Source of the DNA: Escherichia coli
GTDB taxonomy: Bacteria; Pseudomonadota; Gammaproteobacteria; Enterobacterales; Enterobacteriaceae
Length of the DNA stretch: 64,000 bases
NCBI RefSeq assembly: GCF_050920415.1
Contig: NZ_CP169309.1
Reading direction: 5' to 3' (one strand)
The position numbers were made by a program, and so were the translations under genes. Below, in pieces: positions 13,216 to 13,254 of the stretch; position 1 is the first letter of the stretch; the number at the start of each line of letters is the position of its first letter. The notes under the pieces are model-generated. The model was not told the origin of the DNA, made no database searches, and saw nothing but the letters and a program-made list of their open reading frames with translations.

Positions 13216-13254
13216 AGTGATTTTTTATGCATATTTTGTGATTATAATTTCACG
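13216..13254 (+). promoter_or_regulatory. argD promoter with two ARG boxes (ArgR operator) overlapping a TATAAT -10
   Basis: agtgattttttatgcata and tgtgattataatttcacg, two 18-mers 3 bp apart resembling TNTGAATWWWWATTCANW; tataat at 13243-13248. Confidence 0.45.

Follow-up and report, generated by a model that had tools for sequence, protein, structure and literature searches.

The spacer between pabA and argD in this Escherichia coli strain raises two questions, namely whether the pair of ARG-like 18-mers that it holds is the operator by which the arginine repressor ArgR acts on argD, and which hexamer serves as the −10 of the promoter on which that operator lies. A preliminary description, made from the letters alone, had read positions 13216–13254 of the window (the whole stretch of 64,000 nt that was analysed) as two ARG boxes overlapping the argD −10, and had pointed to the TATAAT contained in the second box. 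The site lies in a pabA–argD spacer of 85 bp, and the gene order at the locus is tsgA, ppiA, yhfG, fic, pabA, argD, yhfK. The name argD is that annotated in K-12 and in the record of E. coli MFDS1022581 (NZ_CP169399.1), which is 100% identical to the window in the pabA–argD surroundings and in the region 20000–25000. The coordinates of the features are collected in Table 1. By sequence comparison, the pabA–argD region of this strain appears to be locally divergent; at the pabA–argD junction (13100–13400) most of 5,426 complete E. coli genomes are about 95–97% identical, with at least 99% in 13 records, and in 20000–25000 the best non-self records reach 98.7% identity.

Table 1. Features of the pabA–argD region, with positions given in the window.
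Feature	Positions	Strand	Basis or remark
pabA	12636–13199	+	upstream gene; stop codon at 13199, 7 nt before the predicted −35
Predicted −35, TTGCCA	13207–13212	+	consensus scan; TTGC in 36/37 genera, its distance from box 1 being constant
ARG box 1, AGTGATTTTTTATGCATA	13216–13233	+	strong box, 15.1 bits
Predicted −10, CATATT	13230–13235	+	end of box 1 plus spacer; 17 bp from TTGCCA; invariant in 37/37 genera
Spacer, ttt	13234–13236	+	3 bp between the ARG boxes
ARG box 2, TGTGATTATAATTTCACG	13237–13254	+	weak box, 4.0 bits
Transcription start predicted with CATATT as −10	13241–13243	+	6–8 nt 3′ of the hexamer
Alternative or secondary −10, TATAAT	13243–13248	+	perfect hexamer inside box 2
Shine-Dalgarno-like AGGGTG of argD	13271–13276	+	8 nt 5′ of the ATG, direct sequence reading
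argD (acetylornithine/succinyldiaminopimelate aminotransferase)	13285–14508	+	ORF; regulated gene

The two 18-mers were confirmed as described: the site reads AGTGATTTTTTATGCATA ttt TGTGATTATAATTTCACG and ends 32 nt, and begins 69 nt, upstream of the argD ATG. Compared with the consensus TNTGAATWWWWATTCANW, box 1 has three mismatches on the plus strand and two on the minus strand, and box 2 has three on either strand. Matches of this quality are not significant when taken singly, as 18 boxes with three mismatches or fewer were counted in the window against 8.4 ± 4.0 expected; it is the exact pair with the 3-bp spacing that stands out. For scoring, a symmetrised position weight matrix (PWM) was built on 14 ARG boxes from argECBH, argA, argF, argI, argG, argR and carA, with argD left out; the training boxes were the classical pairs, each confirmed in the control regions of K-12 MG1655. 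Box 1 ranked second of 63,983 positions with 15.1 bits (the training boxes span 9.5–23.0), and box 2 ranked 83rd, its 4.0 bits lying below all 14 training boxes; by itself, box 2 is marginal and would not be called. The 3-bp-spaced pair, instead, was the top pair of the window with 19.1 bits, the next one reaching 12.2, and its score was attained in 4 of 500 random 64-kb windows generated with a first-order Markov model. The PWM scan that the preliminary description had put forward as a check was, in other words, favourable to the pair and unfavourable to box 2 alone. The box-to-box register of 21 bp is common to six of the seven K-12 operators that we located, the exception being argR with a spacer of 2 bp. 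A third ARG box immediately upstream (13195–13212) scored −7.1 bits by PWM and is not supported.

The strongest single ARG-like 18-mer of the window lies elsewhere, at 4039–4056 (TATTAATTAATATTCATT, 17.35 bits, one mismatch to the consensus), 22–39 nt 5′ of the yhfL start, where the spacer is very rich in A/T. It is probably due to chance, because it has no partner box (its best pair is the one of 12.2 bits). In the same part of the window yhfS and yhfL are adjacent (~3850–3960), and the fructoselysine operon frlABCDR, which in K-12 stands between these two genes, is absent.

ArgD loci were taken from 80 species and their upstream regions were scanned for ARG pairs. For about 70 genomes of Enterobacterales, the pair that scored best 5′ of argD was the same 39-bp site, mostly 69–72 nt from the ATG (60–113 overall), with a distribution that spans from Escherichia to Yersinia, Serratia, Dickeya, Photorhabdus, Providencia and Xenorhabdus; no ARG pair was found upstream of argD in six genomes outside Enterobacterales. 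A different, stronger and near-consensus pair of 28–43 bits was seen 5′ of argD in Orbaceae (Gilliamella, Schmidhempelia, Zophobihabitans), about 97–117 nt upstream, at a greater distance from the gene than that of the enterobacterial site. When the sequences of 37 genera were aligned on box 1, a sharp footprint emerged, consisting of TTGC (13207–13210) and of the stretch 13218–13252, with unconserved flanks on both sides; the 3 bp between TTGCCA and box 1 vary across genera, as does the upstream flank. Inside the footprint, conservation was 84–100% at the box 1 positions 13218–13233, 97–100% in the TTT spacer and 92–100% in the TG..T..TTCA core of box 2.

Taken together, we have little doubt that 13216–13254 is the already known argD operator of the arginine regulon, as the preliminary description had proposed on the letters alone; this assignment is upheld by the top PWM pair, by the conservation in Enterobacterales, by the orthology with K-12 and by the ArgR occupancy reported there. 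The operator of K-12 argD (b3359) is placed in the same pabA–argD spacer, 69 nt from the ATG (3,490,180 in NC_000913.3); its box 1 is identical to that of the window, and its two boxes are likewise 3 bp apart. The comparison with K-12 revealed two substitutions, both in box 2, which in K-12 reads TGTGGTTATAATTTCACA (5.0 bits, vs 4.0 for TGTGATTATAATTTCACG in the window; pair scores 20.1 and 19.1 bits, respectively). At position 5 K-12 carries G and the window A, the ARG-consensus base found in 92% of the genera; at position 18 K-12 carries A and the window G, a minority base across genera. These differences are allelic variation and not a different design.

Evidence on the binding of ArgR comes from K-12. 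ChIP-exo located ArgR at the argD upstream region (PMC4381063), and paired ARG boxes 2–3 bp apart, their centres about two turns of the helix from each other, are typical of ArgR operators (PMC4381063, PMC6245113). Moreover, GFP reporters revealed that the argD promoter is repressed by ArgR with a relative dissociation constant of 5.25, compared with 0.6–2.85 for the other biosynthetic arg promoters and 25.7 for argR (PMC3658269). Binding of ArgR and repression of argD, known from the K-12 literature, are predicted for the site in the window, as is their dependence on arginine. The argR gene does not lie within the 64 kb of the window; among 5426 complete E. coli genomes, 5425 carry it. In leave-one-operator-out scoring, argD had the lowest pair score of eight operators (19–20 bits), followed by argR (21.7 bits); over seven promoters the trend of the PWM scores runs in line with the reported ArgR affinities, but the correlation was not significant (Spearman −0.64, p = 0.12). 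A good box 1 joined to a poor box 2 agrees with the rather weak affinity for ArgR that has been reported at the argD promoter. The enzyme encoded by argD also serves the synthesis of lysine/diaminopimelate.

The layout is shared, with some variations, by other operators of the regulon. In K-12 argF and argI two ARG boxes 3 bp apart also lie over the core promoter; in argI, in particular, box 1 is directly preceded by TTGCAA, and TATAAA straddles the junction of box 1 with box 2, an arrangement like that predicted for TTGCCA and CATATT here. On the other hand, the boxes of argF and argI are nearer to the consensus (leave-one-out pairs of about 37 bits vs 19 for argD), and their ArgR dissociation constants are 0.6–1.4 vs 5.25 for argD (PMC3658269). 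The operator of argR resembles that of argD in joining a good and a poor box (16.0/5.8 bits leave-one-out, vs 15.1/4.0 here), and both show a weak apparent affinity for ArgR (PMC3658269); it differs in the spacer, 2 bp instead of 3, and in the gene that it regulates. At carAB P2, one ArgR hexamer occupies two 18-bp boxes which, as here, are 3 bp apart, and the binding of ArgR and of RNA polymerase is mutually exclusive (PMC6245113). In carAB it is the −35 of the second, downstream promoter of a tandem pair that the boxes overlap in part, whereas argD in the window has a single predicted promoter, with its spacer, −10 and start region all lying under the boxes.

The argD operator consists of two 18-bp ARG boxes set in a 21-bp register, and it overlies the core of the predicted sigma-70 promoter of argD. 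By analogy with this family, a single arginine-loaded ArgR hexamer would bind both boxes cooperatively and, once bound, could exclude RNA polymerase from the promoter by steric hindrance. When arginine is plentiful, ArgR would be bound and the transcription of argD lowered.

Which −10 the operator covers is a separate matter. In sigma-70 promoters, transcription starts 6–8 nt downstream of the −10 hexamer. The only match to a consensus promoter in 13000–13500 was TTGCCA-17-CATATT, and TTGC and CATATT are the most conserved non-ARG features in the 37 genera. TTGC is kept where the upstream gene differs and also in genera that lack ATGGCAA at the start of argD (Yersinia, Serratia, Photorhabdus and Providencia), so that coding constraint and RNA pairing are excluded as explanations of its conservation. 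In particular, the idea that TTGC is conserved for pairing with the argD start codon was ruled out by the genera without ATGGCAA. The conservation of the TTT spacer exceeds what the ArgR consensus needs and, as judged from the alignment, fits a role as part of a −10 hexamer. A published, broad sigma-70/RNA polymerase ChIP-chip region is centred on the predicted argD promoter if its coordinates are those of U00096.2. Furthermore, genomic SELEX revealed binding of the RpoD holoenzyme to the pabA–argD spacer, for which the same study predicted, rather than mapped, the promoter TTGCCA-17-CATATT (Shimada 2014, PMC3946193). We therefore regard as the likelier arrangement that the functional −10 is CATATT at the junction of box 1 with the spacer, with a predicted start near 13242, inside box 2.

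A less likely arrangement, in which we place some tentative weight, keeps the site as an ArgR operator but assigns the function of −10 to the TATAAT of box 2; the predicted start would then move to about 13255, with box 1 lying over the −35/spacer region. Use of TATAAT, or of both hexamers, as −10 is possible to a similarly limited extent. The hexamer is a perfect −10, and the count of promoter hexamer matches in E. coli makes little difference (8/12 for the TATAAT promoter vs 9/12 for TTGCCA/CATATT). In addition, most of the 37 genera keep a −10-like hexamer here, with A and T as its second and sixth bases; TATATT is found in 20, TATAAT in 8 and other hexamers in 9, with TATGTT, TATTAT or TATCTT in 5. 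Nevertheless, TATAAT fails the consensus promoter scan; its best −35 at a distance of 16–18 bp is TTTTTT, with 2/6 matches, TTGCCA is 30 bp away, and no TGn of an extended −10 is in register. Neither the retention of TTGC, 30 bp upstream, in 36 of 37 genera nor the invariance of CATATT and of the spacer is explained by this assignment; moreover, ARG boxes are A/T-rich in the middle, and this part would resemble a −10 by itself. With either hexamer, the operator overlaps the predicted core promoter and covers the −10 and the start region, but the TATAAT to which the preliminary description had pointed is not the best-supported −10.

Returning to the arrangement with CATATT as −10, the known picture of arginine regulation is left unchanged, and the sole amendment concerns the likely identity of this element. 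A real repressor site could be recognised from sequence alone, and for annotation it marks both the promoter and the operator of argD in this strain; at the same time, even a perfect TATAAT is not bound to be the −10 in use when it falls within a repressor box. Here, conservation across genera favours the weaker CATATT paired with the conserved TTGCCA.

The stretch of about 35 bp (13218–13252), nearly invariant throughout the order together with TTGC, includes positions at which the ARG consensus is degenerate or violated: both boxes read TGATT rather than TGAAT, for instance, and the T6 tract and the spacer TTT are further examples. A composite promoter/operator code, constrained more tightly than by ArgR binding alone, or a role at the RNA level, would account for such positions, and we consider either of them improbable. 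The additional constraint might come from an operator that is kept weak on purpose and tuned with precision, or else from a second ligand. As to the RNA, one possibility would be the pairing of ATTGCCAT in the −35 region with ATGGCAAT at the argD start, to which it is exactly complementary; such pairing could occur only in transcripts reading through from pabA. The two segments belong to a 16-nt inverted repeat (13206–13221/13277–13292) with 81% complementarity, and related genera often carry GTTGCCAT/ATGGCAAC. A reading of the region as an RNA element or attenuator was rejected, no Rfam match being found at E ≤ 1.

The same tight conservation of many non-consensus positions of the 39-mer, beyond what the ARG consensus requires, could be ascribed to another regulator bound to the site or to its box 2, for instance one of the CRP type with an 8-bp spacer, since TGTGA and TCAC, half-site sequences characteristic of CRP, are both present in box 2. 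We judge this very unlikely. Box 2 is TGTGA-N8-TCACG, while the canonical spacing of CRP is N6 and N8 is that of an ARG box; the 21-bp ArgR register and the good box 1 speak against CRP, as does the ArgR occupancy of K-12 argD by ChIP-exo (PMC4381063), and a place on top of the core promoter is unsuited to activation by CRP.

That the two 18-mers are A/T-rich palindromes arisen by chance, or the terminator of pabA, is hardly credible: about 8 single boxes with up to three mismatches are indeed expected per window, and the RNA of 13195–13290 folds better than shuffled sequences (z = −3.47), but the fold arises largely from the palindromic boxes, the pair score is as rare in random windows as given above, and the scan of 13000–13500 returned no terminator-like site between pabA and argD, that is, no G+C-rich stem followed by a T-run. 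The conservation of the site across a bacterial order, with flanks that are not conserved, effectively refutes this reading.

Two minor features of the argD leader were also observed. The palindromic 3′ half of box 1, TTATGCATA (13225–13233), recurs 35 nt downstream as TTATGCGTA (13260–13268), and many Enterobacteriaceae have a GC(A/G)TAA motif at the corresponding point of their argD leaders; the repeat might be a half-site or plain conservation of the leader. Finally, a 17-codon ORF at 13280–13333 on the plus strand opens 5 nt upstream of the ATG of argD in a different frame and matches yrfJ (b4820), which is annotated in K-12; an ATG located 5 nt 5′ of that of argD (ATGA[C/G]ATGG) is recurrent in many Enterobacteriaceae.
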